64,000 nt of DNA. It comes from a virus (lineage: Duplodnaviria; Heunggongvirae; Uroviricota; Caudoviricetes). The number at the start of each line of letters is the position of its first letter. Positions within the stretch are counted from its first letter, which is position 1. The notes below the pieces were generated by a model. That model saw only the letters and a list, made by a program, of their open reading frames with translations. It was not told the origin of the DNA and did no database searches. The translations under genes were made by a program, and so were the position numbers. The DNA lies in the IMG/VR virus record IMGVR_UViG_3300036771_000024, positions 55,392 to 119,391 of that record. One strand, 5' to 3'. Positions 1-37,440 of the stretch are shown here, piece after piece.

Positions 1-1
1 A

Positions 2-1243
2 CCCGGGCCTGTCCCTGCGATATCGGTCCTGGCTGGTATCCCCACCGCGACAGGTACGTCACCGGCCCCGTCCATCCAGACGGGCCTGACTGTCAATGCC
101 GGGATCCCCACCGCTACCGGTGCGGCACCGGGACCTGTTGTCGCTGAGGCTGTCAAACCTGGCATTCCCACGGCTACGGGCAGCGCCGCCGCGATTGTCG
201 CTGAGGCTGTCCTGGCGGGCATACCTACTGCTACGGGTAGCGCACCTGCACCGCAGATCCTGACGGGGCTGACCGTCAACGCCGGGATCCCGACTGCTAC
301 GGGTGCAGCATCACAGCCGGTGGTCGCTGATGCGGTAATTCCTGGCATACCTACTGCTACGGGCAGCGCCGCCGGGTTCGTGAACATCCAGGCTAAGCCT
401 GGTATCCCCACGGCTACGGGTACGGCACCGCAGCCAACGGTGGCTGAGGCTATCCTAGCCGGGATCCCGGTCGCTACCGGGGTAGCACCGCAACCAGGGA
501 TCGTCACCGGCCTAGTCATCACCGCTCCTCCTGTCACGGCGGCAGGCTCAGCATCTGCCATAGCGAACATCCAGCCGATCGCTGGCGCACCGGTAGCCAC
601 GGGCACGCCAGCGCAGCCGGTTGCTGCACCGTCGGCATTCGCTGGTGCTCCCACCGCTACCGGTTCAGCAGCAGCAGTAGCGAACATACGCCCCGTGGCT
701 GGTGCACCCACAGCTACAGGCGCAGCCGCGGCGACCGTCTCGATCTTCGTCAACGCGGCCATACCTGTCGCTACGGGTACGTCACCGCAGCCGGGGATCG
801 TCACCGGGCTCGTCATCAACGCACCCCCGGTCACCGCGTCGGGCCTGGTATCGCAGCCGGTCATAGCAGAGGTTATATTCGCCGGGATACCTGCCGCAAC
901 GGGCAGCGCACCACCGGTTACGCGTGGGGTCGGTGCAGGGATACCGACCGCTACCGGGTTTGCACCGCAGGCGAAGATAGCCGAGTCGGTGTTCGCTCTG
1001 GTTGCGGTCGCTGCGGGCGTGGCACCGGATGCCCAGGCGGTATCGGTCCTGCCGCATGTCACCGCCCGTTCCACGTCTTCGGTGGATGCGAAGGTGAATT
1101 CCACGTCAGCAGCGGATGACCCGCGTGAGGCCAGTAGTGCTGTCGGAGGGCGGGGTTCCACCTCGTCAGCTGACAGCTCGAAGGGCGGCGCGGGTTCACC
1201 GCTGGTGACAGGGGCACGTGATAGCGTTTCATCAGTGACGTAG
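2..1243 (+). CDS. 5'-partial structural protein made of >=16 tandem ~20-aa repeats (consensus xAGIPTATGxAPQPxxAEAV) ending in an S/T-rich C-terminal tail; possible capsid/decoration-type protein
   Basis: Frame open from window edge (first in-frame start codon at 320 but no upstream stop); 60-nt DNA periodicity visible from nt 1 to ~1000; C-terminal 60 aa ~40% Ser/Thr; lies immediately upstream of head-tail connector gene. Confidence 0.55.
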   Translation, partial: PGPVPAISVLAGIPTATGTSPAPSIQTGLTVNAGIPTATGAAPGPVVAEAVKPGIPTATGSAAAIVAEAVLAGIPTATGSAPAPQILTGLTVNAGIPTATGAASQPVVADAVIPGIPTATGSAAGFVNIQAKPGIPTATGTAPQPTVAEAILAGIPVATGVAPQPGIVTGLVITAPPVTAAGSASAIANIQPIAGAPVATGTPAQPVAAPSAFAGAPTATGSAAAVANIRPVAGAPTATGAAAATVSIFVNAAIPVATGTSPQPGIVTGLVINAPPVTASGLVSQPVIAEVIFAGIPAATGSAPPVTRGVGAGIPTATGFAPQAKIAESVFALVAVAAGVAPDAQAVSVLPHVTARSTSSVDAKVNSTSAADDPREASSAVGGRGSTSSADSSKGGAGSPLVTGARDSVSSVT

Positions 1244-1258
1244 AAAGGGAGGGTCGCG

Positions 1259-2209
1259 GTGTCGAGTACCGTCTTCTACGACAACGCCAACGAATTCGCG
1301 ACCCTCACTGTCACATTCAACGTGCTGACCATACCCACCGATCCGACCGCAGTTTCATGTCTTGTCACTGACCCAGCGGGCGGGCAGGTTACTCACACGT
1401 TCGGTGGTGCTGCCCCCGCTGACGTGACCAAGGTCAGCACCGGCAAGTACAAGCTGGATATAGCGTGCTCACCGTCGATCACCGGGGTTGAGGGCCTGTG
1501 GTCCTACGCATGGGTAGGGACCGGGGCGGCAGCCGACGTGCAGCCCGGGACGTGGCGTGTCCTCGCGCTGGACCAGCCCCGGTGGTACGTGGGACCCGAG
1601 GAGCTGAAGGACCGCATCGGCCAGACGGACAGCACAACCGACTCGGTCCTCGCGTCGGTGTGCCTGGCCACCTCGCGGTGGATCGACCGGTACTGCGGGC
1701 GTCACTTCTTCCGCACGACCGACGTGCGGACCTACCAGCCGACCAACATCGCGCTGCTGGTCACCGATGACATCGTGTCGGTCACCAGCCTGAAGGTCGA
1801 TGTTGACGGTGACGGCGTGTTCGAGACCACGTGGACTCAGGGCACCAACTATCAGCTCCGCGTCGGATGGGGCCAGTACAACACGGGTGAGTACAACCAG
1901 CTCGCGTCGGGTGAGCAGAAGCCGTTCACGCAGGTTCAGGTGATCGGCTCAACGAACTTCTTCCCGTTCATCTGGCCGTTCGTCCACATGGACCGGGTGC
2001 AGATCAGCGGGGTGTTCGGCTGGCCCCAGGTCCCCCCGGTGGTGACGCAGGCTGCACTGCTGATCGCTGCTGACTGGTTCAAGATGAAAGACGCACCGTG
2101 GGGTGTGGCGGGTATCTCCGACCTGGGGATCATCCGGGTCCAGTCGAACCCGTGGATCAGCGAGCAGCTCCGCCCGTATTGCCGGGCACGCGGAAAGGTC
2201 GGGGTGTGA
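1259..2209 (+). CDS. head-tail connector/adaptor protein (gp6-like domain) with N-terminal beta-rich extension
   Basis: GTG start with AAGGGAGG RBS; central segment ELKDRIGQTDSTTDSVLASVCLATSRWIDRYCGRHF and C-terminal AALLIAADWF resemble phage gp6-like head-tail connector family. Confidence 0.5.
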   Translation: MSSTVFYDNANEFATLTVTFNVLTIPTDPTAVSCLVTDPAGGQVTHTFGGAAPADVTKVSTGKYKLDIACSPSITGVEGLWSYAWVGTGAAADVQPGTWRVLALDQPRWYVGPEELKDRIGQTDSTTDSVLASVCLATSRWIDRYCGRHFFRTTDVRTYQPTNIALLVTDDIVSVTSLKVDVDGDGVFETTWTQGTNYQLRVGWGQYNTGEYNQLASGEQKPFTQVQVIGSTNFFPFIWPFVHMDRVQISGVFGWPQVPPVVTQAALLIAADWFKMKDAPWGVAGISDLGIIRVQSNPWISEQLRPYCRARGKVGV

Positions 2210-2424
2210 AACCTGCTACGCGCGGTGTGCTGACCACGCAGAACTCACCGGCGATCGTCGCTGTCATATTCGGCTTCCCGGGCGGGCGGCGGGGCGGCCG
2301 GGGCCGGTGATCAGTGGCCGGGAAGCGGTGCACGTTCTACGCGAACGGCGTGCACCACTTCGTGTTCTACGGGAAGAAATACGCGCAATGCCGGTGCGGG
2401 CACAAACTGAAAAGGGTGTGAACC

Positions 2425-2835
2425 GTGGCTGACATCAACGCGATAGCCACCGCCATGGCGAACCGTATCGCCACGACCGGGGTGAAAGCCCTCCCGTACG
2501 CACCCGGTGCGATCGTCCCCCCGGCTGTGGTGGTGATACCGGACCGGCCTGCGATCCTGTACGGGCAGACGATGGACGGGGAAGTCAACCTGAACTTCCT
2601 CGCGATCGTGGTCCTGTCAGCGGCGAACGACACGACCGGCCAGCTCAACCTGAACAACTTCGTGGCCTCGTCGGGTGCCCAGTCGGTCAACGCGGCGATC
2701 CAGGGTGACCCGTCACTCGCGGGGACGGTGGAATTCGCTATCGTCCTCCAGGTCGGCACGTACGGCCTGATCGAATACGCAGGCCAGCAGTACATCGGGG
2801 CTTCGTTCCTCATCCAGTGCGGGGCGCACCTGTGA
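2425..2835 (+). CDS. hypothetical virion protein (head-tail joining / tail terminator-like position)
   Basis: 136-aa ORF, synteny between connector and tail genes; no motif recognised. Confidence 0.35.
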   Translation: MADINAIATAMANRIATTGVKALPYAPGAIVPPAVVVIPDRPAILYGQTMDGEVNLNFLAIVVLSAANDTTGQLNLNNFVASSGAQSVNAAIQGDPSLAGTVEFAIVLQVGTYGLIEYAGQQYIGASFLIQCGAHL

Positions 2836-3599
2836 AAATAGCGATCATCGGTTACCTGGGTATCGTCGGCCAGGCACAGGCACGCATGTTCACCGGGCAT
2901 GACCTGGTGCGCCGCGACACAGCAGACGGTTCTGCCCGCGCTGATCTCACGGGATGCGATTTCGCGGTGGTGTGCGTGGGCACCCCGTCAGGCGACGGGG
3001 GTTACGCCGACCTGACCTTCCTGGACGAAGCGATATCATCCCTGCCTGAATCGCTGCCCATCCTGATCCGTTCCACTGTCCCGCCTGGCACAACCGTCAG
3101 GGTCAGCGCTGCACGCAGCGGTATCACAGCGTGCGCACCGGAGTTCCTGACCGAACGTAAAGGCGGCGCGTGGCCGGACAGCACCGACGTGCCGTTCCTG
3201 ATCCTGGGCGGAGACACCGGAGGGCTGGGTTTCTTCCGGCCCCGCCTGGCCATGGTGTTCCCCGGTGAGATCATCGAATGCGCCCCGACCGCAGCCGAGC
3301 TGGTCAAGTACACCGCGAACCTGTACCAGGCCACCCGGGTCACGTTCGTGAACGAGATGGCCCGGATATGCGAGGCACGCGGGGTGGACTGGGAACAGGT
3401 CCGTGCAGCATGGCTGGCCGACTCACGGGTGGACCCGCAGTACACGGCCATGGAAGGTTTCCCGCCCGGGTTCGGCGGCCGGTGCTGGCCAAAGGATCTC
3501 GAAGCCCTGATCACAGCGGCCCGGAGCTGCGGGTATGAGGCTTCGTTCCTGGTCGCGGTCCGTGAGGCAAACCAGCGTTTCACAGCGGAGGTCGAATGA
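2832..3599 (+). CDS. UDP-glucose/GDP-mannose dehydrogenase family protein, C-terminally truncated form
   Basis: N-terminal Rossmann KIAIIGYLGIVG; APEFLTERKG (cf. NPEFLREG); catalytic-Cys motif GFGGRCWPKD (cf. GGSCFPKD); ~255 aa so lacks typical C-terminal UDP-sugar domain; start GTG overlaps upstream stop. Confidence 0.6.
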   Translation: MKIAIIGYLGIVGQAQARMFTGHDLVRRDTADGSARADLTGCDFAVVCVGTPSGDGGYADLTFLDEAISSLPESLPILIRSTVPPGTTVRVSAARSGITACAPEFLTERKGGAWPDSTDVPFLILGGDTGGLGFFRPRLAMVFPGEIIECAPTAAELVKYTANLYQATRVTFVNEMARICEARGVDWEQVRAAWLADSRVDPQYTAMEGFPPGFGGRCWPKDLEALITAARSCGYEASFLVAVREANQRFTAEVE

Positions 3600-4657
3600 G
3601 GGTTCTTGTTGTCCACCCGGGGCCGAACTTCTCGGTCGCTGACGTACACAACGGGTGGGTAGACGCATTGCAGGGGCTGGGCTGCGAGGTTGCCTCGTTC
3701 AACACAGACGACCGGATCCAGTTCTACGCGCATTCGCTGATAGACACCGGTGAGGTCGATGAGGAAGGCCACCCGCTGGTCCGCCGGGCGATGAGCAACG
3801 ATGACGCGTTCCGAGCTGGCATGCAGGGCCTGTCCCACGCGTGTTTCACGATGTGGCCGGACGTGGTGGTCTTCGTGTCGGGGTTCTTCGTGACCGCCGG
3901 TATCTTGCAGCTGCTCCAGTCGAGGCGGATGAAGGTGGTGCTGCTGGCCACCGAGTCCCCGTACCAGGAGAAGATGCAGCTGGAACGGGCGCAGTGCACC
4001 GACGTGACGCTGCTGAACGACCCGGTGAACATCGAGCAGTACCGGGACATGGGGATCGTCGCCGAGTACGCACCGCACGCCTACCGCCCGTCGGTCCACT
4101 ACCCGCACGGACCGGGGGACGTGTGGAAACCCGAGCTGGAAGCGGACCTGTCGTTCATAGGGACGGGGTTCAAGTCGCGGGTGGAGTTCTTCGAGCGGAT
4201 GAACCTGCGTGGCCTGGACGTGCTCCTGGGCGGCTGCTGGGTGGACGTACCGGAGGAATCGATCCTGAACCAGTACCTGGGTCACGGGCCCGACGTGTGC
4301 GTCGACAACACCGAGACCGCTGAGATCTACCGGCACGCGAAAGCTGGCATCAACTTCTACCGGCGTGAGTATGACGACGCTGATGACGACGCGGTCCAGC
4401 CGTACGCGATGGGTCCCCGTGAGGTGGAGATGGCCGCGTGCGGCCTGTTCTACCTTCGTGACCCCCGCCCCGAAGGCGACCAGCTACTTCCCATGCTTCC
4501 CACGTTCTCCGGCCCCGAGGATGCCGGTGAGCAGCTCCGCTGGTGGATCAGCCACGACAAGGAGCGGGAAGCAGCAGCCGCGGCAGCGCGGGAGGCAGTA
4601 TCTAACCGCACGTTCGATGAGAACGCGCGGCGGTTGCTGAAGCTGCTGGACTCATAA
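3596..4657 (+). CDS. GT-B fold glycosyltransferase (GT1/GT4-like)
   Basis: C-terminal half has nucleotide-sugar binding signature incl. E-x7-E-like PREVEMAACG and typical GT4 C-terminal helix; translationally coupled (ATGA) to dehydrogenase gene. Confidence 0.5.
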   Translation: MRVLVVHPGPNFSVADVHNGWVDALQGLGCEVASFNTDDRIQFYAHSLIDTGEVDEEGHPLVRRAMSNDDAFRAGMQGLSHACFTMWPDVVVFVSGFFVTAGILQLLQSRRMKVVLLATESPYQEKMQLERAQCTDVTLLNDPVNIEQYRDMGIVAEYAPHAYRPSVHYPHGPGDVWKPELEADLSFIGTGFKSRVEFFERMNLRGLDVLLGGCWVDVPEESILNQYLGHGPDVCVDNTETAEIYRHAKAGINFYRREYDDADDDAVQPYAMGPREVEMAACGLFYLRDPRPEGDQLLPMLPTFSGPEDAGEQLRWWISHDKEREAAAAAAREAVSNRTFDENARRLLKLLDS

Positions 4658-4752
4658 TTGAATAGTGTCACCGAGGCCGTAGCCACCTCACGAGGTGCGG
4701 ACGGAGCCGGTTCTTTCACAGATCCGTCCCGTAATAGTAAGGAGCACCTACT

Positions 4753-5187
4753 GTGAGTAGGATCCACGGCCGGAACGGGATCGCGTACATCGCGGTCCAG
4801 TCCGGTGCTGCGGCCTCGCCGATGGCATTTCTCACCGACTGGTCGATTAACTTCGTCGTGAACAAGGTCGACGTTACCGCGATGGGTGACCCCAACCTGA
4901 TCTGGGTCGCCGGTCTCCCTGACGCATCCGGTGACTTCTCCGGGTTTTACGACACCGCGACCGCGCAGACGTACGTCGCGGCTACTGACGGCCTGCCGCG
5001 TAACATGTACCTGTACCCGAGCACGCTGGGCCAGCAGGGTGCTAACCCTGGCCAGTACTTCTTCGGTACGATCCTCCCCGACTACAGCGTGACCGGTGGT
5101 GTCTCGGCCGCCGTGTCGCTGAAGTCGACATGGAACGCCGCCTCGCCTATTATCCGCTACCCGAACGTGGGTATTCCGGGCACCTAA
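4753..5187 (+). CDS. putative major tail (tube) protein
   Basis: 144-aa ORF with AAGGAG RBS located just upstream of chaperone/TMP genes; assignment by synteny only. Confidence 0.4.
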   Translation: MSRIHGRNGIAYIAVQSGAAASPMAFLTDWSINFVVNKVDVTAMGDPNLIWVAGLPDASGDFSGFYDTATAQTYVAATDGLPRNMYLYPSTLGQQGANPGQYFFGTILPDYSVTGGVSAAVSLKSTWNAASPIIRYPNVGIPGT

Positions 5188-5285
5188 TCTCATGGTGCTG
5201 GACAGCGGTGTGGGCCCGACGACGGCGGAGGTCACGTAACAGGCGGGCCTCACACCGGCAGTACCAGCATGAGGAGATGTGCTAA

Positions 5286-5852
5286 ATGGCAGATGACGTG
5301 CGCGCCGAAGTCGAGATCGCTGCGACCCAGGTGCAGGCGTCCACAGACCGGGAACTGTCCGGCGAGGTCATCAACCATGACAGGGTGGTGACTCTCGCCG
5401 GGCAGGACTTCCGGGTCGCGGAGAAGGTCGGGCTCATGCCGTTGCTGAAGTTCAGCCACGCGGCTGAGCTGCGCGCAAACGACTCCCGCGCGTATGTGGC
5501 GATGTACGAGATCCTCCGCGACGTGATCATGGAGGCCGAGGAGCCGTGCGGTGAATGCGCGGCCTGCAAGGAAGCCGGGGACGACCCGACAGCACGCGAC
5601 TGCATATACGCAGACGAAGGTGACTGGGGTAAGTTCCAGGAACACGCCGTCACCTGCAAATGCGAGGCGGAAGAACTATTCGACGTGGTAGAGCAGGCGA
5701 TCAAGGTGATCTCAGCCCGCCCTACCGGGTCGCCATCCAGCTCTGCGGATGGGTCGCGGCGCACTTCGCGGAACTCGACGGCAGGCAACTCCGCCAAACG
5801 GGGCGCGGCCTCGAAACCCTCACCCCGCGGCAGGCGTGCAACCTCGCGCTGA
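5286..5852 (+). CDS. tail assembly chaperone (G-like)
   Basis: VGLMPLLKFSHAAEL motif typical of actinophage tail assembly chaperones; protein-like sequence degrades after ~aa 145 (ARPTGSPSSS...) where overlapping -1 frame becomes protein-like. Confidence 0.5.
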   Translation: MADDVRAEVEIAATQVQASTDRELSGEVINHDRVVTLAGQDFRVAEKVGLMPLLKFSHAAELRANDSRAYVAMYEILRDVIMEAEEPCGECAACKEAGDDPTARDCIYADEGDWGKFQEHAVTCKCEAEELFDVVEQAIKVISARPTGSPSSSADGSRRTSRNSTAGNSAKRGAASKPSPRGRRATSR

Positions 5853-5998
5853 CGTGCATGACGGAAAGCATGGAAGAGGAGCAGCACGAGGAATTCATGG
5901 AGGAACTGTACGCCAGGGATTCGGCTGAGAACACAGCGAAGCAGCAGCTCCGCGAGCACATGGAAGCCGCTGGCATCCAGTGGGACGAGGAGATCTGA
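5660..5998 (+). CDS. tail assembly chaperone C-terminal extension reached by probable -1 programmed frameshift (G-T fusion)
   Basis: Overlaps 5286..5852 in -1 frame; its own N-terminal ~20 aa are junk-like while downstream (VAIQLCGWVAAHFAELDG...) is protein-like; shift expected ~5715-5735. Confidence 0.4.
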   Translation: MRGGRTIRRGRAGDQGDLSPPYRVAIQLCGWVAAHFAELDGRQLRQTGRGLETLTPRQACNLALTCMTESMEEEQHEEFMEELYARDSAENTAKQQLREHMEAAGIQWDEEI

Positions 5999-6447
5999 TG
6001 GCGGGTGTTGAGGTTATCAGGTTCCGGTTCAACGAGGCTGAGGTGCAGGCGTTCCTGAACGACCCGGACGGCCCGGTTGCGCACCTGATGCGCGAGCTGG
6101 GCCTGGAAGCGGAAGGTTTCGCCCGGGCTAAGGTCCGCAAGCGCGCGTCCCCGTCCCCGGGTAAGAGCGGCCGGCCGGGCACGTCCGCACCACCGGGCAG
6201 CACAGCAGCGTCGATCGATTCGGCGTTGCACGCGAACGGGTTCCGCATCCCGTGGGCCGAGGTGTCCGCGGACATGGTGGGCTTGTTCCTCGAAAAAGGC
6301 ACCAGGCCGCACCCCATCGACTCGTACGGGCCATGGTCGCTGTCGAACTACGGGACCGGGTATTTCGGGTATCACGTGAACCACCCGGGTACCCGGCCTT
6401 ATCCATTTCTGACGACTGCCCTGTGGGCTTTGCAGGGTCAGGTCTGA
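5998..6447 (+). CDS. hypothetical protein between chaperones and tape measure
   Basis: ATG at 5998 overlapping stop of frameshift ORF; 149 aa; no motif. Confidence 0.4.
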   Translation: MAGVEVIRFRFNEAEVQAFLNDPDGPVAHLMRELGLEAEGFARAKVRKRASPSPGKSGRPGTSAPPGSTAASIDSALHANGFRIPWAEVSADMVGLFLEKGTRPHPIDSYGPWSLSNYGTGYFGYHVNHPGTRPYPFLTTALWALQGQV

Positions 6448-6464
6448 GCTAGGGGAGTGATGCT

Positions 6465-9400
6465 GTGGCGCGTCGGCTAGGTGAGGCGTTCGTCTCCATC
6501 GAAGCCGACGCGTCTCTTTTCCGTCCCACGGCTATAGCCGGGATGAAGAAGGCGCTCGCCGGCGTGACCGGGAACATCAAGATCACCGCTGACATGGACC
6601 CGAAGAGGGCCGAGCAGGGGATCGCGGCGCTGAAGCTGCGGATGGAGGCGCTGTCGCAGATCCTGGCGAAGCTGCGCGCCAGCGTGGACACGAAGTCGGC
6701 TGAGGCGTCGGTCGTGAAGCTGCAAGCGGACCTGCACGGCCTCGCTAAGAGCGTCAGCAAGATCACGTTCCAGCCGGACACGCGGAAGCTGGACGCCGCC
6801 ATCGCCAAGGCGCAGACCGAGCTTCGCGGGCTCATGAAGGACCTGAGCAAGGTCACGCTCCAGGCGGACACCACGAAGCTGGACACGGCCATCGCCAAGA
6901 GCAAGGCCCTGCTCCGCTCGCTGGAACGGCAGGCGTCCGAGTTGCAGCTCGACGCGGATGTCACCAAGATCGACTCGAAGATAGCGAACCTGAATAAGGA
7001 AACCGCTGTCATCAACAAGGCCCTGGGGAAGATGAAGGCCGATGTTGACATCGACAAGGCACTGTACCGCCTGTACGCGATCGAAGCTGAGATCAAGCTG
7101 CTCAACTCCGACGCGAAGAAGATCGAGCTTATCGCGAAAACCAACGCGATCAACGTCCAGATCGCCGGAGTCCTGAAGCACATCGATGACCTGGGGAAGG
7201 AGAAGGCTGACCTCGCCGCGAACACCACGATCATCAAGGCGCAGATCGCTGATGTGCACGCGCGTATCGCGGCGCTCTCACAGGAGAAGATCGACCTCAC
7301 CGCGAATATCGACACGAGCGTCCTGCTGAACGCCGAGCAGAGGATGCTCGGCCTGGAAGCTGCCACGTCGAAGATGGCGGGGACCACGAAGGACGCCACG
7401 AAGGCGTCCGCGGGGCTCCAGGGAATATGGACGGGCGGCTGGCTCCGCGGTGCCATCCTGGGTGTCGGCATCTGGCACATCGCGCTTGACGGCCTGCTGG
7501 AAATCATCATCATCGTGACCGCCTCGCTGATCGCCCTGGCTGCGGGCGCGGCTGGCCTGGCCGAGTCCGCCAGGAACATCGCCACGCAGATGAACAGCGT
7601 GCGGACGGCATCATCAGCTCTCGGGCAGAACATCCAGCCGCTGACCGGCAAGCTGGACAACCTGATGAAGTCGATGGCATCCCGGTCGATCGAGATTTTC
7701 GGTGGCGGCCTGAACCTGATCAAGAACCAGGCAGGAGGGGTCCTGTCCCGGATCGAGCCGGTTGTCAGCCTGTTCGACACGTGGGTCGCGAAGATCGACA
7801 TATGGGCTGCGCACAACCGTGACTTCGGCGCGGCTATCAACTCGGGCCGCCAGTTCCTGGAGCAGCTCGGCAAGATCATCGGTATCCTGACGAACGCTAT
7901 CTCGAACCTGCTCCAGAAAGACCCGGGGATCGCGCATTTCCTCCTCGACTTCGTCCAGGGGGCGGTGCTCCTGCTGGACGCGTTCAGTAAGCTGCCGAGG
8001 CCGATCGTGGAGGCCACCCTGGCGATCCACGGGGCATACCTGTGGCTGAGGCTGCTCGTCGCGCTGCCGATCCTGGCGTTCGCGAAGTCGCTGGGGATCC
8101 TGTCAGCTAAGCAGCTCGAATCAGCTGGTACCGCGCTGAAATTCAGTAATGTCGTGAAGTTCCTGGCCACCAACCCGTTCGGGTGGGCGACGGTAGCCGC
8201 GATCACGGTCGGGCTGCTGGCCTGGCAGCTCACCCAGGCGACCGGTGCGGCTAAGAGCTTCATCGGCTCGCTGGAAACAGGGCTGGCTAACGCCAGTGCC
8301 AGTCAGGCGATCAGCCAGATCAGCATTGACATCGGGCTGCTCAACGCGCAGATCGACCGGGTCCCGGCTCGTGTCGGCAACCTGGAACTATCGGTTGTCG
8401 GTTTCGCGTCGAAGGCTGGTACTTCTTTCAACAATGTCAGCCACGACCTGAACAAGGGAGACATCAACGGCGCGCTGACCGACATTGCCCGCACCGCTTA
8501 CAACGCGGTGCGGGCTTTCTTCGGGTTCCAGTCCGTGGGCCCGCAGATCAAGCAGACCCAGAACGACGTGGGGAAATTCCGCGAGGAGATCGTCCACCTG
8601 TCTGCTGAGCAGACACGCCTGTTCCACACGACCGGGACGCTGGTCACGGGGCAGAACGACCTGCACCTCGGCACCTTGTCTGTCTCGCAGGCGTTCGCCC
8701 TGATGGACCTGGCGGGGGTGAAAGCATCCGACAGTATAGATGTGCAGTACCAGAAGGTCAAGAACCTCGTCACCGGGTACAACGCCCTGTCCATCCGCGG
8801 CGGTATCCTGAAGAACTCCGTCAACGCGATCACGTTCGCCGCGCTCCAGCAGCAGGAGAAAGTCGGGCAGCTCAACTCGGCGTGGGACACGTTCTTCCAG
8901 ACGGTCACCGGTGGCGCATCCGGGTTCCTCTCATTCGCGACGCAGACCATCGGCCTGTACTCCACGCTGACCACCAACGGTGTCAAGCTGGCGTCCAGCA
9001 ACGGGAAGGTCCACGCCAGCCTGTCGGGTCTCGCAGCCGGGGCTCAGGACACAACCATCTCCATGACGGGGCTGAACCTCGCGTCGATCAACGCCAGGCA
9101 GACGTTCCTCCAGTCCGCTGGCGCGGCCAACACGCAGATCGACAACCTGACCCTGCTGGCGAACGCAGCCGGGCTTGGCCAGAAGGGCACCGACCTGCTC
9201 ACCCGGGCGACGCAGGACATGGTGGCGTCGCTGCTGCCCGCGACCGGTAAGTCCCAGGAACTGACCGACGCGCTGTTCGTCCTGGCGCAGCGTGGCGGCT
9301 ACCAGGGTGCGAACAGTTTCAAGGCCCTGTCGCAGTGGGTGAGTAAAACCAAGAACCCCATGCAGGATCTGGATAAGATCACTTCCACGCTGACGACCGA

Positions 9401-11966
9401 CGCGTCGAACCTGACCGACGACGTGAAAAACCTGTCGGTCGCGCTGGGGCAGAACCTGAACGACGCGATGTCGCAGGCTATCCTCCAGGCCACCGGCGGT
9501 CAGCAGGCGTTCGATGATTTCGCCAACGCGATGCTGAACACCAGGACTAACAGCGCGGCGCAGCAGAAGGCCGCCCTGGAGCTAGGTAATCAGCTCCTCG
9601 CGCTGACGGGGAACACGAAGGATGCGCACAAGGAATTCGACGCGTTCGCCATCCAGATGGGAATCAGCCGCGAGGATGCCGACAAGCTGTGGAGTGAGAT
9701 AGCGGGCAAGCTCACCCCGACGCTGGCCGAGCAGGCGACCAAGACCCTGCCGAACCTGAAGAACGCGTTCACCGACTGGGCGAAGAACGGCCTGAACTTC
9801 GGCAAGACGAAAGCCCATGACCTGTGGAACGAGATCACCACCAAGCTGGGCCCGAAGCTGGACGGCCTGGGTAACCTGGCTGCCGGTCCCGTCAAGCAGA
9901 AGTTCATCGACTGGGCGATCCACGGCCTGGGCCTGACACGGCAGCAGGCGATCAACCTGTGGAAAGAAGTGGACACCCTCCAGCAGCACATCGACGCGCT
10001 GCACGGCAAGGCTGTTGTCGTGGCCATGCGGGGTGACGGCTCGTACGTGATCCGCGGTACCAACCTCCAGTCCGCACCGGGGACAGGCGGGCCGAACGCG
10101 ATCTCCCGTGGCGCAGCCGAAGGCTGGTACGTCTCCGGTGGCACCCCGGGCAAGGACAGCGTTGCGGCGATGCTGATGCCAGGCGAGCTGGTCGTCCCCA
10201 CGAACATGGTCAACGCCGGGGTAGTCGACCACCTCCGCGGCAAGCTACCCGGGTTCGCTGGTGGCGGTGTCGCAGGCACCACGCCTAACCTGCATAAGAA
10301 CCCGCAGTTCGTTGACGGCATGTACTCGACGTTCAACAAGACGATGACCGCTGCGATGGTCTCGGCGATGCACGCATCACTGCGGGCGTCGGAGATAGCA
10401 GCGCTCGCAGCGGCGAAGGCTGCGGCTGCGGCTGCGGCCAAAGCATCCGCGGGTGTCCCTGGCGCGCTAGGAGGCCCGACCTCAGCGTCCGCGTCGCAGG
10501 CGCAGTCTTATGCGAGCGGCCGGCTCGGTGCGTACGGGTGGAGTGCCGGGCAGATGAGGCCGCTGATCCTGCTGTGGAACCAGGAGTCAGGCTGGAACCG
10601 GTTCGCCCGCAACCCTGGCAGCGGCGCGTACGGAATCCCGCAGGCACTCCCGCCCGGGAAGATGGGCTCGGCAGCTAACCCGCCCACCTCATCAGCAGCA
10701 GCGCAGATCAACTGGGGCCTGGGTTACATCAGGTCCGTCTACGGTTCACCGGCCGGTGCGTGGGCACACGAAATTGCCCACAACTGGTACGCGAAGGGTG
10801 GTCTCGTTCCCGGTTATGCTACTGGCGGGCTGGCCTCGAACCAGGCTGGTGAGCGCGCTAAGTACTTCGGTCTGACACATTCGGTCGCGATGGACCTGGC
10901 GCACGCCAAGACCGGCTCTTACACGTCCGGTCACCGTAAGACAATCATCAACGAGCTGGGCACGCTGGCGAAACGGCAGAAAACCGAGCTGTCAGCCTAC
11001 GGTGCTGCTGCCCGTCTGTCTAACGCCGCTAACCTGGGGCACCTTGCAGCCGCAGCGCATGCCGAGCAGCGCACAGCCTCAGACCAGGCGCTCACCCACG
11101 TGCACCCCGGGTGGGCGAAGGACCTGCGCATGTACCTGGGGCGGCTGGCAGCTACTAAGCCCTCGGCCAGCGGTGGAGGCGGAGGCAGCGGCGGAGGTGG
11201 AGGCGGGGGTAGCAGCGGCGGGAGCGGACCGGGTTACCCGGCGTGGAACCCGCCGAAGGTAACAGGAAGCGGTGGTGTCGCCGGGCTGCAAGCCAAGCTG
11301 AAGGACGTGGAACACCACGAGGGCCTGGACTACCTGGGTCTGCGTCACGCGTTTTTCGCCGGGCCGAAGAAATACCTGGACAAGACCACGCTGAGCGAAC
11401 TGGAGACGCTCCGGCAGCGGCAGGCCGCGTCGCAGACCGTGTTCTCGCTGCTGAACCGCAGCGCTGCTAACGTGTCCGACGTTAACCTCGCCAAGCTGGC
11501 CACGGTAGTCAAGGCGGAGGCAACGACGGTGACAGACAAGGCGCTGAACAGGCTCCCCGGAGGGCACCCCGGGTGGGCTCACGGATTGTGGCACTGGCTG
11601 GAGCAGCTCGGCGGGTTCGGCAAGGCCGGGGTGGCACCCTTCCTGCCCGGCGTCACCCACACGTTCGGCGGGGATGTCGGTAACACGATCGCCGAGTTCC
11701 TATCCTCGGTGATCAGCCCGCTGGGCCTGGCAGACGGCGGCATGGTCAGGTCGTATGACAAGGGCGGGTGGATGCCACCGGGACTGTCCATGTCGTACAA
11801 CGGCACGGGCAGGCCCGAACCTGTCGGCTCCCCGTCTAACGTGGTTGTCACGTTGCAGATCGACGCGGGCAGCAGTAACGCCGACCAGTTCCTCGCGGCG
11901 ATGATCAAGAAGTACGTGAAGGTAAGCGGTGGAGGTAACGTGCAGAAGGCTTTCGGGGCGCACTGA
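6465..11966 (+). CDS. tape measure protein
   Basis: 1833 aa, long coiled-coil-like N-terminal region, TM segments (aa ~320-370), Gly-rich linker SGGGGGSGGGGGGGSSGGSG, embedded region ESGWNRFARNPGSGAYGIPQALP resembling peptidoglycan-hydrolase motifs seen in actinophage TMPs; GGAG RBS. Confidence 0.9.
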   Translation: MARRLGEAFVSIEADASLFRPTAIAGMKKALAGVTGNIKITADMDPKRAEQGIAALKLRMEALSQILAKLRASVDTKSAEASVVKLQADLHGLAKSVSKITFQPDTRKLDAAIAKAQTELRGLMKDLSKVTLQADTTKLDTAIAKSKALLRSLERQASELQLDADVTKIDSKIANLNKETAVINKALGKMKADVDIDKALYRLYAIEAEIKLLNSDAKKIELIAKTNAINVQIAGVLKHIDDLGKEKADLAANTTIIKAQIADVHARIAALSQEKIDLTANIDTSVLLNAEQRMLGLEAATSKMAGTTKDATKASAGLQGIWTGGWLRGAILGVGIWHIALDGLLEIIIIVTASLIALAAGAAGLAESARNIATQMNSVRTASSALGQNIQPLTGKLDNLMKSMASRSIEIFGGGLNLIKNQAGGVLSRIEPVVSLFDTWVAKIDIWAAHNRDFGAAINSGRQFLEQLGKIIGILTNAISNLLQKDPGIAHFLLDFVQGAVLLLDAFSKLPRPIVEATLAIHGAYLWLRLLVALPILAFAKSLGILSAKQLESAGTALKFSNVVKFLATNPFGWATVAAITVGLLAWQLTQATGAAKSFIGSLETGLANASASQAISQISIDIGLLNAQIDRVPARVGNLELSVVGFASKAGTSFNNVSHDLNKGDINGALTDIARTAYNAVRAFFGFQSVGPQIKQTQNDVGKFREEIVHLSAEQTRLFHTTGTLVTGQNDLHLGTLSVSQAFALMDLAGVKASDSIDVQYQKVKNLVTGYNALSIRGGILKNSVNAITFAALQQQEKVGQLNSAWDTFFQTVTGGASGFLSFATQTIGLYSTLTTNGVKLASSNGKVHASLSGLAAGAQDTTISMTGLNLASINARQTFLQSAGAANTQIDNLTLLANAAGLGQKGTDLLTRATQDMVASLLPATGKSQELTDALFVLAQRGGYQGANSFKALSQWVSKTKNPMQDLDKITSTLTTDASNLTDDVKNLSVALGQNLNDAMSQAILQATGGQQAFDDFANAMLNTRTNSAAQQKAALELGNQLLALTGNTKDAHKEFDAFAIQMGISREDADKLWSEIAGKLTPTLAEQATKTLPNLKNAFTDWAKNGLNFGKTKAHDLWNEITTKLGPKLDGLGNLAAGPVKQKFIDWAIHGLGLTRQQAINLWKEVDTLQQHIDALHGKAVVVAMRGDGSYVIRGTNLQSAPGTGGPNAISRGAAEGWYVSGGTPGKDSVAAMLMPGELVVPTNMVNAGVVDHLRGKLPGFAGGGVAGTTPNLHKNPQFVDGMYSTFNKTMTAAMVSAMHASLRASEIAALAAAKAAAAAAAKASAGVPGALGGPTSASASQAQSYASGRLGAYGWSAGQMRPLILLWNQESGWNRFARNPGSGAYGIPQALPPGKMGSAANPPTSSAAAQINWGLGYIRSVYGSPAGAWAHEIAHNWYAKGGLVPGYATGGLASNQAGERAKYFGLTHSVAMDLAHAKTGSYTSGHRKTIINELGTLAKRQKTELSAYGAAARLSNAANLGHLAAAAHAEQRTASDQALTHVHPGWAKDLRMYLGRLAATKPSASGGGGGSGGGGGGGSSGGSGPGYPAWNPPKVTGSGGVAGLQAKLKDVEHHEGLDYLGLRHAFFAGPKKYLDKTTLSELETLRQRQAASQTVFSLLNRSAANVSDVNLAKLATVVKAEATTVTDKALNRLPGGHPGWAHGLWHWLEQLGGFGKAGVAPFLPGVTHTFGGDVGNTIAEFLSSVISPLGLADGGMVRSYDKGGWMPPGLSMSYNGTGRPEPVGSPSNVVVTLQIDAGSSNADQFLAAMIKKYVKVSGGGNVQKAFGAH

Positions 11967-14900: not shown

Positions 14901-15208
14901 CCTACCACCTCCGGTGGACCCTGACTGTCAACACGACCGGGGCGGGCGGCTCATGCAACATCGAGGCTTCCGGTGGTGCGTCCATCCAGTTCGACAACGG
15001 CGTCCAGTTCAACCTGGGAAACTCCTCCCCTGTCCGCAGCGGTGGCGGTGGCGGGCAGGGTGCGGTCGCGATCAACCAGATCAGCACCGGTGTCGCTTTC
15101 GACACGACCGCGAACCACAGCTTGGCGATCTACGGTAACTGGGGTGCGACCACCGGCACCGGGCACAGCGCCATCACGTACCGCACCAAGAAAACACGGA
15201 GGAACTAA
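11966..15208 (+). CDS. minor tail protein (distal tail/baseplate-type, 1080 aa)
   Basis: ATG overlaps TMP stop (TGATG); large protein immediately after TMP; Gly-rich patch near C-terminus. Confidence 0.7.
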   Translation: MVNAPAQLATATGLGVQPGIGTGLNANAQLASALGAAGLPATNATSLTFPAKNLQARVDLLLNGVWTDITPFVYQRTGINITNMGRTDWNSTIQAAQLTITVNNRDGRFTPKLAAGAYFPNIVRNTQIRVFLTVTSVTGVSYAGFRFYGEVTEWPVNWDASQRDIAVDIVASGIWRRLSQLQTSLGSAYRRFKVNTTAATGMRSYWPMEDGTGSGQIVPYGSVAGTQNATQQFVSGQAGLSFASVGAFHGSDDLVGLNGALITATVPAGGTPTNNVTRFAFSIPQAGDSAAAGGNWNLVEIDSAGTVARFEVYVTGTTKLIMQLRNSGGALLAQGTTSTLVNGTPYLASCELTPSGGTINFAFRIIQQGASGITESMTGSLTGTIGQISKVVVSRAFQLSDTGFGHLSVAYGAPTSLVQEAYVLNGYLGEFALDRFKRLCGELGITASTIGSSASSAPMGPQVDDTFANVMQSIEDTDCGLLYELRDQFGLGYRTNASMANQQIQFTLDYSAKTIDPSLAPSYDDQLTKNNVTISNWSGYTQQAILTAGPMSVLNPPSGIGNGYNYTRSVNAANDNQVPGIANFILNVGSVDEIRFPVVTVKMIRSQLANNYSAIPNADIGDYFQITNPPSFLTTTVIRQLMWGYAETLNAREWTFQFNTVPETPWEVGFSPGTIQTAQIPGGSPVSSQAQGSLGLASLIANGSLTPAMLSNGITVHTLGGNAITISASAPVAPNVNDIWIASATGLISQWNGSAWIPFKFDASQTIIAGTIVTANIAASAITSSLIAAGTVVAGIVDATQVKAAEYDAFNTTGQFFAYDTSTPTTGHLTTSIAGGSGTDTASNAFPKGLMSQQLTLVNQGSVPSAFSGASVLYTSSSDRLRYLSSSGNDLVLDRSVLENTTHSMNTQTLATIMSGTLSYLANEGQVGSEYEVEIDGTFTSPSGHTAVYNHSFFIDGAGTGINNVTYGAVFTSALLTIAYHLRWTLTVNTTGAGGSCNIEASGGASIQFDNGVQFNLGNSSPVRSGGGGGQGAVAINQISTGVAFDTTANHSLAIYGNWGATTGTGHSAITYRTKKTRRN

Positions 15209-15210
15209 CC

Positions 15211-15849
15211 GTGGACGAGGTTGTCGTCGCCTACCTGCACGGCGACACGGTAAAAGCGGAATTCGCCCAGTCGCTGCTGATCATGTGCCTGGAAACGGAC
15301 GTGCCGGTCACCTCGGTGGTGGCGGTCTCGTCCGGGCCGAACCTTTCCGCGGGCCGCAACATGATCTGCCGCCTGTTTCTGACACAGCATGAATCACAGT
15401 GGCTGTTCATGTGCGACACCGACATGGTTTTCCCCTCTGACACCCTGGACCGGCTGATAGCAGCAGCGGACCCCGTTGAACGGCCCGTCCTCGGTGGGTT
15501 CTGCCAGCGGCTCACCCTGCAAGGCCAGCCCAGCCCGACCTTGTTCCAGTTCGTGTCAGGCAGGGACGGTGCGGTGTATCCCGTGACCTACCCTCGGTGG
15601 CCCGACAACGCCGTGTTCCGGGTGGAGGGGACGGGTGCTGCGTGCCTGCTCATCCACCGGTCCGTGCTAGAGGCCGTTGAGAAGAACACGGGGGACCGGT
15701 CAGCCCCTTGGTTCCGTGAGAGTGACTGCGCCCCGGGTCTGCTGCTCGGTGAGGACCTGACGTTCTGCCTGCGGTGCGCCTCGGCGGGCATCCCCGTGCA
15801 CGTCCACACCGGGATCAGGGTGGGGCACGTGAAGAAACAGATCATCTAG
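15211..15849 (+). CDS. GT2-family glycosyltransferase
   Basis: GT-A signatures: CDTDM (DxD-like), GEDLTFCLRCASAGIPV; 212 aa; directly follows minor tail gene. Confidence 0.6.
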   Translation: MDEVVVAYLHGDTVKAEFAQSLLIMCLETDVPVTSVVAVSSGPNLSAGRNMICRLFLTQHESQWLFMCDTDMVFPSDTLDRLIAAADPVERPVLGGFCQRLTLQGQPSPTLFQFVSGRDGAVYPVTYPRWPDNAVFRVEGTGAACLLIHRSVLEAVEKNTGDRSAPWFRESDCAPGLLLGEDLTFCLRCASAGIPVHVHTGIRVGHVKKQII

Positions 15850-25248: not shown

Positions 25249-25935
25249 ATGATCCCCCCGCCGCACCTGATGGTGCGGGTCAGCCGCAACGACGACCCCC
25301 AGACGTGGATCGACACAGGCAAGCGCCTGGCCGTGAAAATGATGGACACGGCGGGCGGGTGGTCGCAGCGACCGGTCCGGGACATACTGGACTGGGGTTG
25401 CGGCCCTGGTCGTGTCTCGTCGCAGATCACCGAGAATTACCCGCCCGGCATCACGGTGTACGGGTGCGACGTGGACGCCGAGGCGATCGGATGGGCCGCT
25501 GAGCATGTTACCGGCCAGTACGCCGTGTCGTCCCTGTCACCACCCCTGCCGTACGAGGATCAGTCGTTTGATGCTGTGCTGGCAGCCTCTGTGTTCACGC
25601 ACCTGCCACGCAGGATGCAACGGGTATGGCTGAGAGAGCTGGCCAGGGTCCTGCGCCCTGGTGGCGTCCTGGTCGCCTCGGTGCACGGCCAGGCAGCAGC
25701 CGAGTCGTTCGGGGTGACGGACCTGGCAGGCATCCAGGACCACTACCTGGACGAGAGCCTCAACGGGATAGCACCGGACGGGTACTACCGGGCTGTGCTG
25801 CAAACAGAGCAATACACGCGCAGCGCATGGTCGGACCGGTTCGTGATCGTCGCATACGAAGAGGCAGCCCTGGACCTGCACGATATGGTGGTGCTGAGGC
25901 CACGGTGCGCCACCCCGGAGCCCGCTAAGCGCTAG
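25249..25935 (+). CDS. class I SAM-dependent methyltransferase
   Basis: Motif I ILDWGCGPGRV, acidic loop VYGCDVD, motif FDAVLAASVFTHL, LRPGGVLVAS. Confidence 0.65.
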   Translation: MIPPPHLMVRVSRNDDPQTWIDTGKRLAVKMMDTAGGWSQRPVRDILDWGCGPGRVSSQITENYPPGITVYGCDVDAEAIGWAAEHVTGQYAVSSLSPPLPYEDQSFDAVLAASVFTHLPRRMQRVWLRELARVLRPGGVLVASVHGQAAAESFGVTDLAGIQDHYLDESLNGIAPDGYYRAVLQTEQYTRSAWSDRFVIVAYEEAALDLHDMVVLRPRCATPEPAKR

Positions 25936-34930: not shown

Positions 34931-34932
34931 GC

Positions 34933-36439: not shown

Positions 36440-36664
36440 ATGAGCCGGGTGCGGCTCACCAGGCAGCAGCGGCGGGCCGCCATGCACCTGTCAGCGTTGA
36501 AGAAGGACGAGTACACGGGGCTGTGGTGCTGCTGGGTGTGCGCCCGGCCCATGGACCCGGTGCTGTACGACAACGGGTTCGCGTCCCATCCGGACTGCGA
36601 CCCCGGTGAGATATCCGAAAGGTTCCCGCCGGAGACAGAACCTGCATGGCTGCGGCTAGCATAG
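36440..36664 (+). CDS. hypothetical protein
   Basis: 74 aa. Confidence 0.4.
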   Translation: MSRVRLTRQQRRAAMHLSALKKDEYTGLWCCWVCARPMDPVLYDNGFASHPDCDPGEISERFPPETEPAWLRLA

Positions 36665-37440
36665 ACCCCGTGATAGCAGCGCTCGCAGTCCACGCGCACC
36701 CGGCCGTGACAGCGCTCGTGATCCACGCGCACCCAGTGATGGCGGCTCTCGTGATCCACGCGCACCCGGCCGTGGCAGCCGCAGCACGTCATGGCGCGCG
36801 CATGCTGATACGCCAGATCGCCGGCTGGTTCGCTGCTGTCCTGACACGCAAACCCTCCGTCACCGTGGTCACCCCGACGTGGGAACGGCGCAGCCTGCTG
36901 ACCCGCCGGTGCATCCCGTCCGTACGGGGGCAGACATACCGTGGCCCTGTGAGCCACGTCATCGTGTCAGACGGGCCCGATGAGGGCCTGGCCGGGGTGG
37001 ATGGGGTGAAGTTCCTGCCCGCGCACGTCCTGGAACAGAACAGGGGGCTGACCGCACGCAGGCACGGCGCTGAACTGGCTGACGGGGAACTGATCGCGTA
37101 CCTCGATGATGATAACGCGTGGCGGCCAGACCACCTCGAAAGGCTGGTCTCCGCTCTGGTCAGGAGCGGTGCTGACTTCGCGTACTCCCGTGCGCTATGC
37201 CATGACAGCGGCCGGACCTGGACGATCGGGCAGTCAGCACCCGTGTTCGGGCAGATCGACACGTCCGTGATCGTGCACCGCCGTGAACTCCTCGGCCTGT
37301 CAACATGGGAGGCGTCCACGGGACCAGCCGACTGGTCGCTGGTGTCCCGGTGGGTCGCTGCCGGTGCGACGTGGGCGCACGTGCCGCACGTGACAATGGA
37401 CTACTATCATCCTGCTGGAGCAGATCATGCAGCCGTTTAA
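36646..37440 (+). CDS. GT2-family glycosyltransferase (start uncertain; ATG at 36802 is alternative)
   Basis: VVTPTWERRSLLTRRCIPSVRGQTY (GT-A N-terminus), YLDDDNAW (DxD), catalytic-base region. Confidence 0.55.
   Translation: MAAASIDPVIAALAVHAHPAVTALVIHAHPVMAALVIHAHPAVAAAARHGARMLIRQIAGWFAAVLTRKPSVTVVTPTWERRSLLTRRCIPSVRGQTYRGPVSHVIVSDGPDEGLAGVDGVKFLPAHVLEQNRGLTARRHGAELADGELIAYLDDDNAWRPDHLERLVSALVRSGADFAYSRALCHDSGRTWTIGQSAPVFGQIDTSVIVHRRELLGLSTWEASTGPADWSLVSRWVAAGATWAHVPHVTMDYYHPAGADHAAV
36664..36770 (+). repeat. 3 tandem copies of a 33-bp unit (GCGCTCG-Y-GRTCCACGCGCACCC-RG-YGRTGRCAG)
   Basis: Read directly; encodes HAHPAVTALVI x3 if translated. Confidence 0.7.

Follow-up and report, generated by a model that had tools for sequence, protein, structure and literature searches.

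The 64,000-nt stretch of viral DNA analysed here (the window; positions 55,392 to 119,391 of the IMG/VR record IMGVR_UViG_3300036771_000024, Caudoviricetes) is part of a source contig of about 119 kb, has a G+C content of 62–65% throughout, and carries at its left end, on the + strand, a head-to-tail and tail operon of the canonical siphophage type. Embedded in this operon are two genes for putative sugar enzymes: 2832..3599 (+) encodes a short (255 aa) nucleotide-sugar 6-dehydrogenase-like protein and 3596..4657 (+) a glycosyltransferase of 353 aa with GT-B fold, which is GT4-like and of the CgeB/Glyco_trans_1_2 type. Upstream of the pair lie the C-terminal 413 aa of a repeat protein of 1152 aa (2..1243, +; read from the translation, with a complete copy in the related assembly L002 at 4190-7648), a head-tail adaptor (1259..2209, +; phrog_442, 2.5e-26, syntenic in relatives), and a tail terminator (2425..2835, +; phrog_17840, 3.6e-22); downstream follow the major tail (tube) protein of 144 aa (4753..5187, +; phrog_10528, 5e-7) and, at 5286..11966 (+), tail assembly chaperone-like open reading frames (ORFs) together with a tape measure protein of 1833 aa (6465-11966), which have syntenic homologues in relatives. 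Megablast and blastn searches of 50,697 deposited phage records with the first part of the window (1-6000) found no DNA similarity. Loci and proteins used for comparison are cited below by L and P numbers.

A sequence-only reading of this DNA had described the two enzyme genes as translationally coupled and as lying inside the block of tail genes, and on both counts it was right. The ATG of the glycosyltransferase gene (3596-3598) overlaps the TGA of the dehydrogenase gene (3597-3599) in the sequence ATGA; likewise, the GTG with which the dehydrogenase gene starts (2832-2834) overlaps the TGA of the terminator gene (2833-2835) in the sequence GTGA, so that, as read directly from the DNA, there is a 4-nt overlap on either side of the dehydrogenase. 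A start at 2832 is favoured over one at 2817 by the alignment of the family. The genes of the glycosyltransferase and the major tail protein, by comparison, are 95 nt apart, and a strong ribosome-binding site (AAGGAG) lies in front of the latter. The order terminator, dehydrogenase, glycosyltransferase, tail protein recurs in two further independent assemblies (L002 and L003) at 99–100% identity, and is therefore not an assembly chimera. A caller based on G+C content at third codon positions (GC3) picks two antisense ORFs instead, 3002-4336 (-) and 2367-2900 (-); these were rejected, as it is the + strand ORFs that have family matches and homologues. The antisense ORFs (444 and 177 aa) combine high GC3 with lack of family support, as is typical of artefacts in high-GC DNA.

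That 2832-3599 belongs to the UDP-glucose dehydrogenase (UGDH) family, with the motif GGxCxPKD and lacking the usual C-terminal domain, had been read from the letters and is borne out by profile searches and a structure model. Pfam recognises the central domain (PF00984, 3.3e-25) and, partially, the NAD-binding N-domain (PF03721, 1.4e-7); the C-terminal UDP/GDP-binding domain (PF03720) is not matched in the same search. PHROG 9148, "UDP-glucose dehydrogenase", is matched at 3.5e-29. The NCBIfam model TIGR03026, "nucleotide sugar dehydrogenase", is matched at 1.1e-36 with a score below its cut-off, because the protein is truncated, and the nearest NCBIfam relatives are the UDP-glucose 6-dehydrogenases TuaD and AglM. 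An AlphaFold2 (AF2) model with a mean predicted local distance difference test (pLDDT) of 88.8 superposes on the UGDH structures 3gg2, 3vtf and 2y0e with template-modelling scores of about 0.81 relative to the query (TMq) and about 0.5 relative to the target (TMt), the latter meaning that the model covers only the N- and central domains of UGDH. In comparison to full-length phage UGDHs two parts are deleted, one of about 32 aa after β2 of the Rossmann fold, the other being the entire C-terminal domain of about 140 aa; in alignment with the full-length enzymes the protein ends where the central domain ends.

The positions required for catalysis align with those of the UGDH structures. Invariant in an alignment of 42 sequences of the short family are the glycine-rich loop (G7, G10, G13), D29, T82, E108, K159, N163, R199, C218 (within GFGGRCWPKD), K221 and D222, and E104 is nearly so (≥90%); these residues we take to be the counterparts of Thr118, Glu141/145, Lys204, Asn208, Arg244, Cys260 and Asp264 of S. 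pyogenes UGDH. As judged from the alignments, the conserved set appears to comprise the complete catalytic and hexose-binding residues of UGDH, and its invariance argues for an active enzyme under selection. By its sequence the protein would best be described as a truncated relative, and not a canonical member, of the UDP-glucose/GDP-mannose dehydrogenase family. The glycine-rich loop, encoded at 2832-2870, reads GYLGIVG (GxxGxxG) and is one residue longer than the usual GxGxxG; the longer form is also found in the family members P0007, P0010 and P0045.

The sequence-only reading had called the dehydrogenase truncated. The loss of the domain is real, and does not make the gene a degenerate one, since the two-domain form is normal in a phage family. 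More than 120 homologues in the protein database, with 50–64% identity, are all 236–280 aa in length. A phmmer search against 1.84 billion cluster representatives yielded 60 clusters at E≤1e-30, and the best 150 clusters are mostly 245–295 aa long, at identities down to about 30%. The short architecture is thus the norm of a large and diverse, metagenomic, phage-associated family and not the outcome of gene decay.

Where this family was found elsewhere (15 IMG/VR loci and several metagenomic contigs), its genes are always part of sugar cassettes, tightly packed and frequently overlapping their neighbours, the partners being GT2, GT17, GT4, epimerase/dehydratase of the short-chain dehydrogenase/reductase (SDR) type, C-methyltransferase and cupin genes. 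Among the neighbouring ORFs within 4 kb on either side in the 15 IMG/VR loci are 11 sugar C-methyltransferases (Methyltransf_13/14), 8 GT2 glycosyltransferases and 7 SDR epimerases/dehydratases; GT4, GT17 or cupin matches also occur among some of them. In two or three loci tail-completion/HK97-gp10-like genes or a beta-helix protein adjoin the short dehydrogenase. The usual cassette partners (C-methyltransferase, cupin, GDP-mannose dehydratase, SDRs, GT17) were not found in the window. It was considered whether the SDR neighbours are UDP-glucuronate decarboxylases, which would fix the product of the dehydrogenase as UDP-glucuronic acid (UDP-GlcA); NCBIfam places them only generically (GalE/4,6-dehydratase/TviC-like), which is not decisive, and the assignment was dropped.

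Besides the cassettes there are natural fusions: the short dehydrogenase occurs joined to a full-length GT-B (P0330), a TOD1/MUCI70-like glycosyltransferase domain (P0321), a GalE/TviC-like SDR (P0263), a methyltransferase (P0279) and a polysaccharide deacetylase (P0361). P0330, a dehydrogenase::GT-B fusion of 610 aa, was found in two sequencing runs (L192/L193, 3899-7833) and belongs to an unrelated phage of 35% GC; it is preceded by Glyco_transf_7C-like and GT2 genes and lies directly downstream of genes for terminase, RusA and an SPP1-type portal. This locus is a second, independent case of a short dehydrogenase together with a GT-B in a block of virion-structure genes. The glycosyltransferase half of P0330 is not an orthologue of the window GT-B, as BLASTP found no significant similarity between them; they are of a common fold class and of different families. 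A shortened enzyme is also encoded by gdhgA, the putative UGDH gene in the glycopeptidolipid cluster of Mycobacterium avium (AF143772; L122 1195-2235; 346 aa). GdhgA, too, stops just past the central domain in the alignment but retains a full N-domain, and an insertion sequence (IS) element is located nearby; its shortening may be of a different origin from that of the short family.

The assignment of 3596-4657 as a GT-B glycosyltransferase was likewise confirmed. It matches PF13524 (Glyco_trans_1_2) at 2.2e-12, with 47.6 bits against a cut-off of 25, and its AF2 model (pLDDT 91.7) shows the two Rossmann domains and the inter-domain cleft of the GT-B fold; Pfam thus puts both enzymes into the families that had been proposed for them. 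No PHROG or NCBIfam family contains the protein. Foldseek relates the model, with a probability of 1.00, to the retaining GT4 enzymes GlgM, MshA, BshA and PimB' and to sucrose-phosphate synthase. A match is also seen to Gtf3 and SdgB, protein O-glycosyltransferases that act on Ser-rich-repeat proteins. Among viral structures, CgeB-like proteins of giant viruses come closest (≤16% identity), identity to any solved structure is likewise no higher than 16%, and the nearest annotation outside phages is the spore-surface maturation protein CgeB. Across 39 homologues R195, N253, R256, E258, R275, E276 and E278 do not vary. Searches returned over 2,200 homologues from metagenomes and at least 556 in IMG/VR.

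Among the distant structural matches of the GT-B is the α-glucosyltransferase of T4 (1y8z, "DNA alpha-glucosyltransferase"), and Bacillus phage SP-15, whose DNA is hypermodified, encodes a UGDH. These two points would fit an enzyme pair that glycosylates phage DNA, as part of a base hypermodification, and not protein. Such matches to DNA glucosyltransferases are, however, weak and of a kind common to the whole fold. Genes for a hydroxymethylase, a dioxygenase or another base-modifying enzyme were not seen adjoining the pair, which is located in the tail operon and not with replication genes, so that we find a DNA target hardly credible.

The position of the two genes was followed in about 150 related viral loci, among them 80 IMG/VR loci retrieved with the GT-B as query and six loci with specific homologues (L035-L040), onto which the structural proteins of the window were mapped, and 64 loci anchored on the major tail protein. 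Nearly all of the GT-bearing IMG/VR loci of sufficient length show the order terminator, glycosyltransferase, major tail protein, usually with only 11–45 nt between the latter two. When the scan was anchored on the major tail protein instead, a glycosyltransferase was found within 6 kb upstream in 56 of the 64 informative loci, and for at least three of the eight exceptions one is known farther upstream on the contig. The same pairing is seen in all 17 hits in GTDB (one genome per species), where a homologue of the major tail protein follows the glycosyltransferase at a distance of about 10–100 nt in 16 cases and of about 0.7 kb in one (L209); it is kept down to 30% identity of the glycosyltransferase and in hosts of 51–74% GC. 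These hits are mostly from metagenome-assembled genomes of Actinomycetota; one lies on a 5-Mb contig of Microthrixaceae, apparently within an integrated prophage, and two isolates are represented, Klenkia brasiliensis DSM 44526 and Amycolatopsis sp. NPDC051128. In Klenkia the pair belongs to a prophage region at about 9.5–22.5 kb of NZ_FNCF01000007, in Amycolatopsis to one on NZ_JBFBBN010000072.

The dehydrogenase behaves differently. It is absent from all of the approximately 150 viral and 17 GTDB loci with the glycosyltransferase or the tail protein, including that of a glycosyltransferase orthologue as similar as 87% (L035), and its GC3 is 0.76 compared to 0.81–0.85 in the neighbouring genes. 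While the GT-B is found at the same position throughout the tail modules of its siphophage relatives, the dehydrogenase is found there only in this phage. Because it is missing from the relatives and has a lower GC3 than its neighbours, the dehydrogenase is a lineage-specific insertion, probably a recent one, and since no GT-bearing relative has it, the two enzymes are not an ancestral pair. The GT-B, on the other hand, is a near-core gene of this tail module, conserved throughout a large lineage of Actinomycetota siphophages that is as yet uncultured. Two elements of the sequence-only reading have to be given up accordingly: the place between head-tail connector and major tail genes is not an unusual one for a sugar gene, as it is the regular slot of the GT-B in almost every relative, and the dehydrogenase is no ancestral partner of the GT-B. 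The fixed order in the relatives rather suggests that the conserved functional partner of the glycosyltransferase is the tail-tube protein, and not the repeat protein.

This pattern also bears on the question of whether the enzymes act on the virion at all. Phage glycosyltransferases that alter the surface polysaccharides of the host are well known, the closest structures to the GT-B are GT4 enzymes using small-molecule or lipid-linked acceptors (MshA, PimB', BshA, GlgM), and CgeB is a protein of spore-surface maturation. It is conceivable, then, that glycans of the host cell envelope are modified, with receptor masking, prevention of re-adsorption to debris, or superinfection exclusion as the benefit, and that location in the tail operon serves late expression only. 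Genes modifying the host surface are normally morons, at variable positions and expressed from the prophage, whereas the glycosyltransferase keeps its place between terminator and major tail protein across a very deep divergence (30–87% identity, hosts of 51–74% GC), a pattern of the morphogenetic type. Further, no membrane anchor or signal was noticed in sequences or models, for which no dedicated search was made. Modification of the host envelope is for these reasons distinctly unlikely.

The interval from terminator to tail protein is at the same time an insertion hot spot. Many relatives contain 0.5–4.8 kb of extra genes between terminator and glycosyltransferase or between glycosyltransferase and major tail protein (for example L040 7141-9983, L094 9097-9687, L102 2379-4082 and L108 6300-6794). 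Most of the inserted genes have no assigned function, many being ORFs without a family; others encode homing endonucleases of the HNH and Endonuclease VII types, an intein-like Hint/LAGLIDADG protein, an S8 peptidase and a methyltransferase. In one locus (L109 6878-7897) the slot between terminator and glycosyltransferase is occupied by an SDR resembling dTDP-glucose 4,6-dehydratase (PF01370, 1.3e-40; TIGR01181, 6.5e-61); as this is the slot of the dehydrogenase, nucleotide-sugar-tailoring genes have been recruited beside this glycosyltransferase on two occasions or more. Paralogues of the major tail protein itself, with 43–56% identity, are located upstream of the adaptor or the glycosyltransferase in several loci (L037 7696-8229, L060 7550-7987, L064 2774-3211, L092 3045-3482 and L103 767-1414). 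The one in L037 is extended at its C-terminus by copies of the short repeat that also makes up the giant repeat protein next to it; a tail-tube-like domain may have been reused here in another virion component.

With an insertion hot spot at hand, the short dehydrogenase might simply be a hitch-hiking moron, or might have become non-catalytic through loss of nucleotide-sugar binding. Its GC3 below that of the neighbours, the absence of the UDP-binding domain and the lack of homologues of the usual cassette partners in the window are all compatible with this. On the other hand, every family-invariant catalytic residue is intact, the gene overlaps its neighbours by 4 nt on both sides and is kept in three independent assemblies, and elsewhere members of the family are always found beside sugar enzymes or joined to them, in one case to a GT-B domain. 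We regard a passenger or a dead enzyme as very unlikely.

If the GT-B modifies a virion protein, two acceptors come into question. The best-supported candidate, through its conserved adjacency to the glycosyltransferase, would be the major tail protein. Its C-terminus (window 5140-5187; alignment A4) follows the pattern ...KSTWNAASxIxRYPxxGIxGT, the last residue being Thr or Ser in most relatives. This conserved Thr was considered as the acceptor site and set aside, because several GT-bearing relatives lack it; it serves as no more than a lead.

The second candidate is the repeat protein. Its complete form (1152 aa, in L002) consists of two N-terminal non-repetitive regions, followed by AGIPTATG units of about 20 aa and a Ser/Thr-rich tail. 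The part within the window has 14 units of a loose AGIPTATG-type pattern, among them 8 exact GIPTATG, spaced by about 20 aa, and a few more degenerate units bring the total near 16; the figure of at least 16 repeats given by the sequence-only reading is thus approached only if degenerate units are counted. The Ser/Thr-rich C-terminal tail, put there at about 60 aa, was found as described: the last 66 aa contain 35% Ser/Thr, more than any other stretch of the structural proteins that were checked. The protein is matched by no family of Pfam or PHROG. Homologues in the GT-bearing loci L035 (558 aa) and L037 (966 aa) have kept both repeats and Ser/Thr-rich tail. As all relatives compared also have the glycosyltransferase, conservation of the tail neither supports nor excludes a role as acceptor.

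It is nevertheless conceivable that dehydrogenase and glycosyltransferase decorate this tail with a uronic-acid O-glycan, a proposal that differs from the one favoured below in the acceptor only. Besides the Ser/Thr content and its persistence in L035 and L037 despite a large change in length, the occurrence of the Ser-rich-repeat glycosyltransferases Gtf3 and SdgB among the structural neighbours of the GT-B would be in line with it. Yet three genes separate the repeat protein from the GT-B, homologues are detectable in few of the GT-bearing loci (a test limited by the low-complexity sequence), and the tightly conserved neighbour is the major tail protein, not this protein without a family match. 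The repeat protein is therefore a legitimate and possible acceptor with no specific tie to the enzymes, and its being the main one is unlikely; of the earlier suggestion that it is the glycan acceptor, the conserved Ser/Thr tail stands, while synteny favours the tail-tube protein.

Two further glycosyltransferase genes of the window could contribute. The product of 15211..15849 (+) is GT-A/GT2-like, with a good match to PHROG 34859 ("glycosyltransferase", 6e-21) and a weak one to Pfam GT2 (5e-4, below cut-off), so that its earlier classification as GT2 is supported by the former and less so by the latter; the gene starts 3 nt past the stop of that for a distal tail protein, and homologues are located a few kb upstream of the GT-B in L056, L057, L067, L199, L202, L204, L206 and L207. 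The other gene, 36646..37440 (+), located about 840 bp downstream of a lysin gene, encodes a GT2 glycosyltransferase as had been claimed (PF00535, 7.1e-14). Its homologues occur both beside the pair of GT-B and tail protein (L060, L064, L092, L111 and L197) and beside the short dehydrogenase (L009, L012, L014, L017 and L019). Because homologues of these genes accompany the GT-B/tail-protein pair or members of the short dehydrogenase family elsewhere, the involvement suggested earlier is plausible, and both GT2 enzymes may extend the glycan. For the gene at 25249..25935, also named as a possible extension of the pathway, Pfam and PHROG searches confirm a generic class-I S-adenosylmethionine (SAM) methyltransferase, and no linkage to the pathway was seen.

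From families, folds, residues, overlaps, synteny and fusions we infer an activity, a substrate, an acceptor and, with these, a glycan on the virion. The genes would form a late-expressed virion-glycosylation unit within the tail operon, to which the dehydrogenase adds uronic-acid chemistry, a proposal to which we give about an even chance of being correct. The GT-B would transfer a sugar from a nucleotide-sugar of the host onto a concurrently synthesised virion protein, the first target being the major tail protein encoded directly downstream and the second the Ser/Thr-rich tail of the repeat protein. The dehydrogenase would oxidise the C6-hydroxyl of a hexose to the carboxylate, in an NAD-dependent reaction using its Cys/Lys/Asn/Asp machinery. 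By the route that we judge likelier, a nucleoside diphosphate (NDP)-uronic acid would be made and then used by the GT-B or by one of the two GT2 enzymes; alternatively, the sugar would be oxidised after its transfer. A partner enzyme perhaps compensates for the lost UDP-binding domain. Action at the level of the nucleotide-sugar is favoured because fusion or coupling to GalE/TviC-like SDRs and glycosyltransferases resembles the logic of UGDH/4-epimerase and TviB/TviC systems; oxidation after transfer is a real alternative because the nucleotide clamp is missing and a fusion to a deacetylase exists. Virion glycosylation, as suggested by the sequence-only reading, is still the most sensible role; what synteny has shifted is partner and acceptor, towards the tail-tube protein.

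Several observations weigh against this proposal. In all characterised members of the family the UDP moiety is bound by a domain which this dehydrogenase lacks, and no detached C-domain ORF was found in a six-frame search of the window, for which a hidden Markov model (HMM) built from the C-domains of three full-length phage UGDHs was used (no match better than E ~1; a model this weak is of limited sensitivity). The product of the dehydrogenase may not be the donor for the GT-B, because GT-B orthologues of up to 87% identity occur without an adjacent dehydrogenase; it may instead feed one of the two GT2 enzymes (15211-15849, 36646-37440). The GT-B has no homologue in the 50,697 deposited phage records (tblastn, E≤1e-5) or in PHROGs, and is therefore not sequence-homologous to the validated enzymes of mycobacteriophages. 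The major tail protein is small (144 aa) and has no Ser/Thr-rich extension, and its C-terminal ...GT motif is missing in several GT-bearing relatives, so that no acceptor site can be named. Finally, the adjacency of glycosyltransferase and tail protein could reflect co-regulation or co-expression only.

A more far-reaching version can be formulated, in which glycosylation of the tail tube, or of some other virion protein, by a dedicated GT-B would be an obligatory and ancient part of tail morphogenesis in this siphophage lineage, the short dehydrogenases a new UGDH-derived class that has lost its nucleotide-binding domain and works only with, or fused to, a partner sugar enzyme or oxidises sugars attached to macromolecules, and the product the first uronic-acid-bearing glycan of a phage virion. 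As a whole it is doubtful.

The distal tail protein of 1080 aa (within 11966-15849, upstream of 15211) matches phrog_5313 at 8.5e-118 and a "phosphodiesterase" PHROG at 5e-24; at the protein level its cultured relatives are phages of Streptomyces and Thermobifida only, with about 30% identity. Farther downstream are genes for a LysM/SLT-domain protein (18113-18949), a protein with a sigma-70 region 4 domain (22763-23680) and a GH25 lysin (34915-35808), the latter being that after which the GT2 gene at 36646 is found. Upstream of the window, as represented by L002, two paralogous proteins of 167–172 aa (1153-1671 and 2133-2636), both starting MAWTDSRIF..., and a protein of 190 aa with a DDLMIVEHD motif (2957-3529) are encoded in what is presumed to be the head module, beside a small methyltransferase (L002 487-1023); these three have no Pfam or PHROG family.

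Phage-encoded virion glycosylation is in itself already known; it has been demonstrated in a few mycobacteriophages only, where it shields the particles from antibodies. Within the resources searched, what appears to be new is a family of tail-module GT-B absent from the cultured phages searched, and a widespread family of truncated UGDH-like proteins. The former, unrelated to the mycobacteriophage enzymes, apparently has a fixed place beside the gene of the tail tube, both in hundreds of phage genomes from the environment and in prophages of Klenkia and Amycolatopsis; as the pair is thus present in prophages of cultivable Actinomycetota, the idea is directly testable. The slot beside the GT-B takes up sugar-tailoring enzymes (the dehydrogenase here, a 4,6-dehydratase in L109), which suggests a way to diversify the virion glycan. 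The two-domain UGDH-like family, in turn, lacks the UDP-binding domain, has kept all of its catalytic residues and has repeatedly been fused to glycosyltransferases, which makes its way of recognising the substrate one of enzymological interest.

Compared to known systems, the short dehydrogenase shares with UGDH (3gg2, 3vtf, 2y0e, 1dli) the NAD-binding Rossmann domain, the central helical domain, the GGxCxPKD motif and the catalytic Lys/Asn/Asp/Glu/Thr, and differs by the absence of the C-domain of about 140 aa and of about 32 aa of the N-domain and by its longer glycine-rich loop; the solved relatives that were found are all at least 388 aa in length. The same two-domain architecture is present in Microbacterium phages of cluster EC (Fireman gp91, 262 aa; 30% identity over 95% of the length), where the dehydrogenase gene likewise overlaps a glycosyltransferase gene. 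Unlike in the window, the cluster EC genes are located in the non-structural right arm, near genes for a sigma factor and ParB, and the partner is a different, unclassified glycosyltransferase of 246 aa; this "UDP-glucose dehydrogenase" is mentioned, without being studied, in PMC7302621. The GT-B has in common with CgeB/Glyco_trans_1_2 (PF13524) and the GT4 enzymes (MshA, BshA, PimB', GlgM; Gtf3/SdgB) the fold and a Pfam match in the C-terminal domain, and its conserved Arg/Glu positions appear to lie in the donor-binding half.

In mycobacteriophages, according to the passages of PMC12363180 and PMC12619734 that refer to Freeman et al. 2023 (Cell Host Microbe 31:1216), glycans are found on the C-termini of capsid and tail-tube subunits, with decoration of the virion surface as the role proposed there. 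Like the systems of Che8, Corndog and Myrna, the one proposed here consists of phage-encoded glycosyltransferases in actinobacteriophages; in the former, capsid and tail-tube subunits are the proteins modified. To our knowledge, a dehydrogenase partner has not been reported for the mycobacteriophages. With respect to Che8 gp110 and Corndog gp38 the analogy is a functional one only, as the window GT-B was not homologous to them in the tblastn search of deposited phages; and unlike the glycosyltransferases of mycobacteriophages, it is fixed in the tail module, beside the gene of the tail-tube protein.

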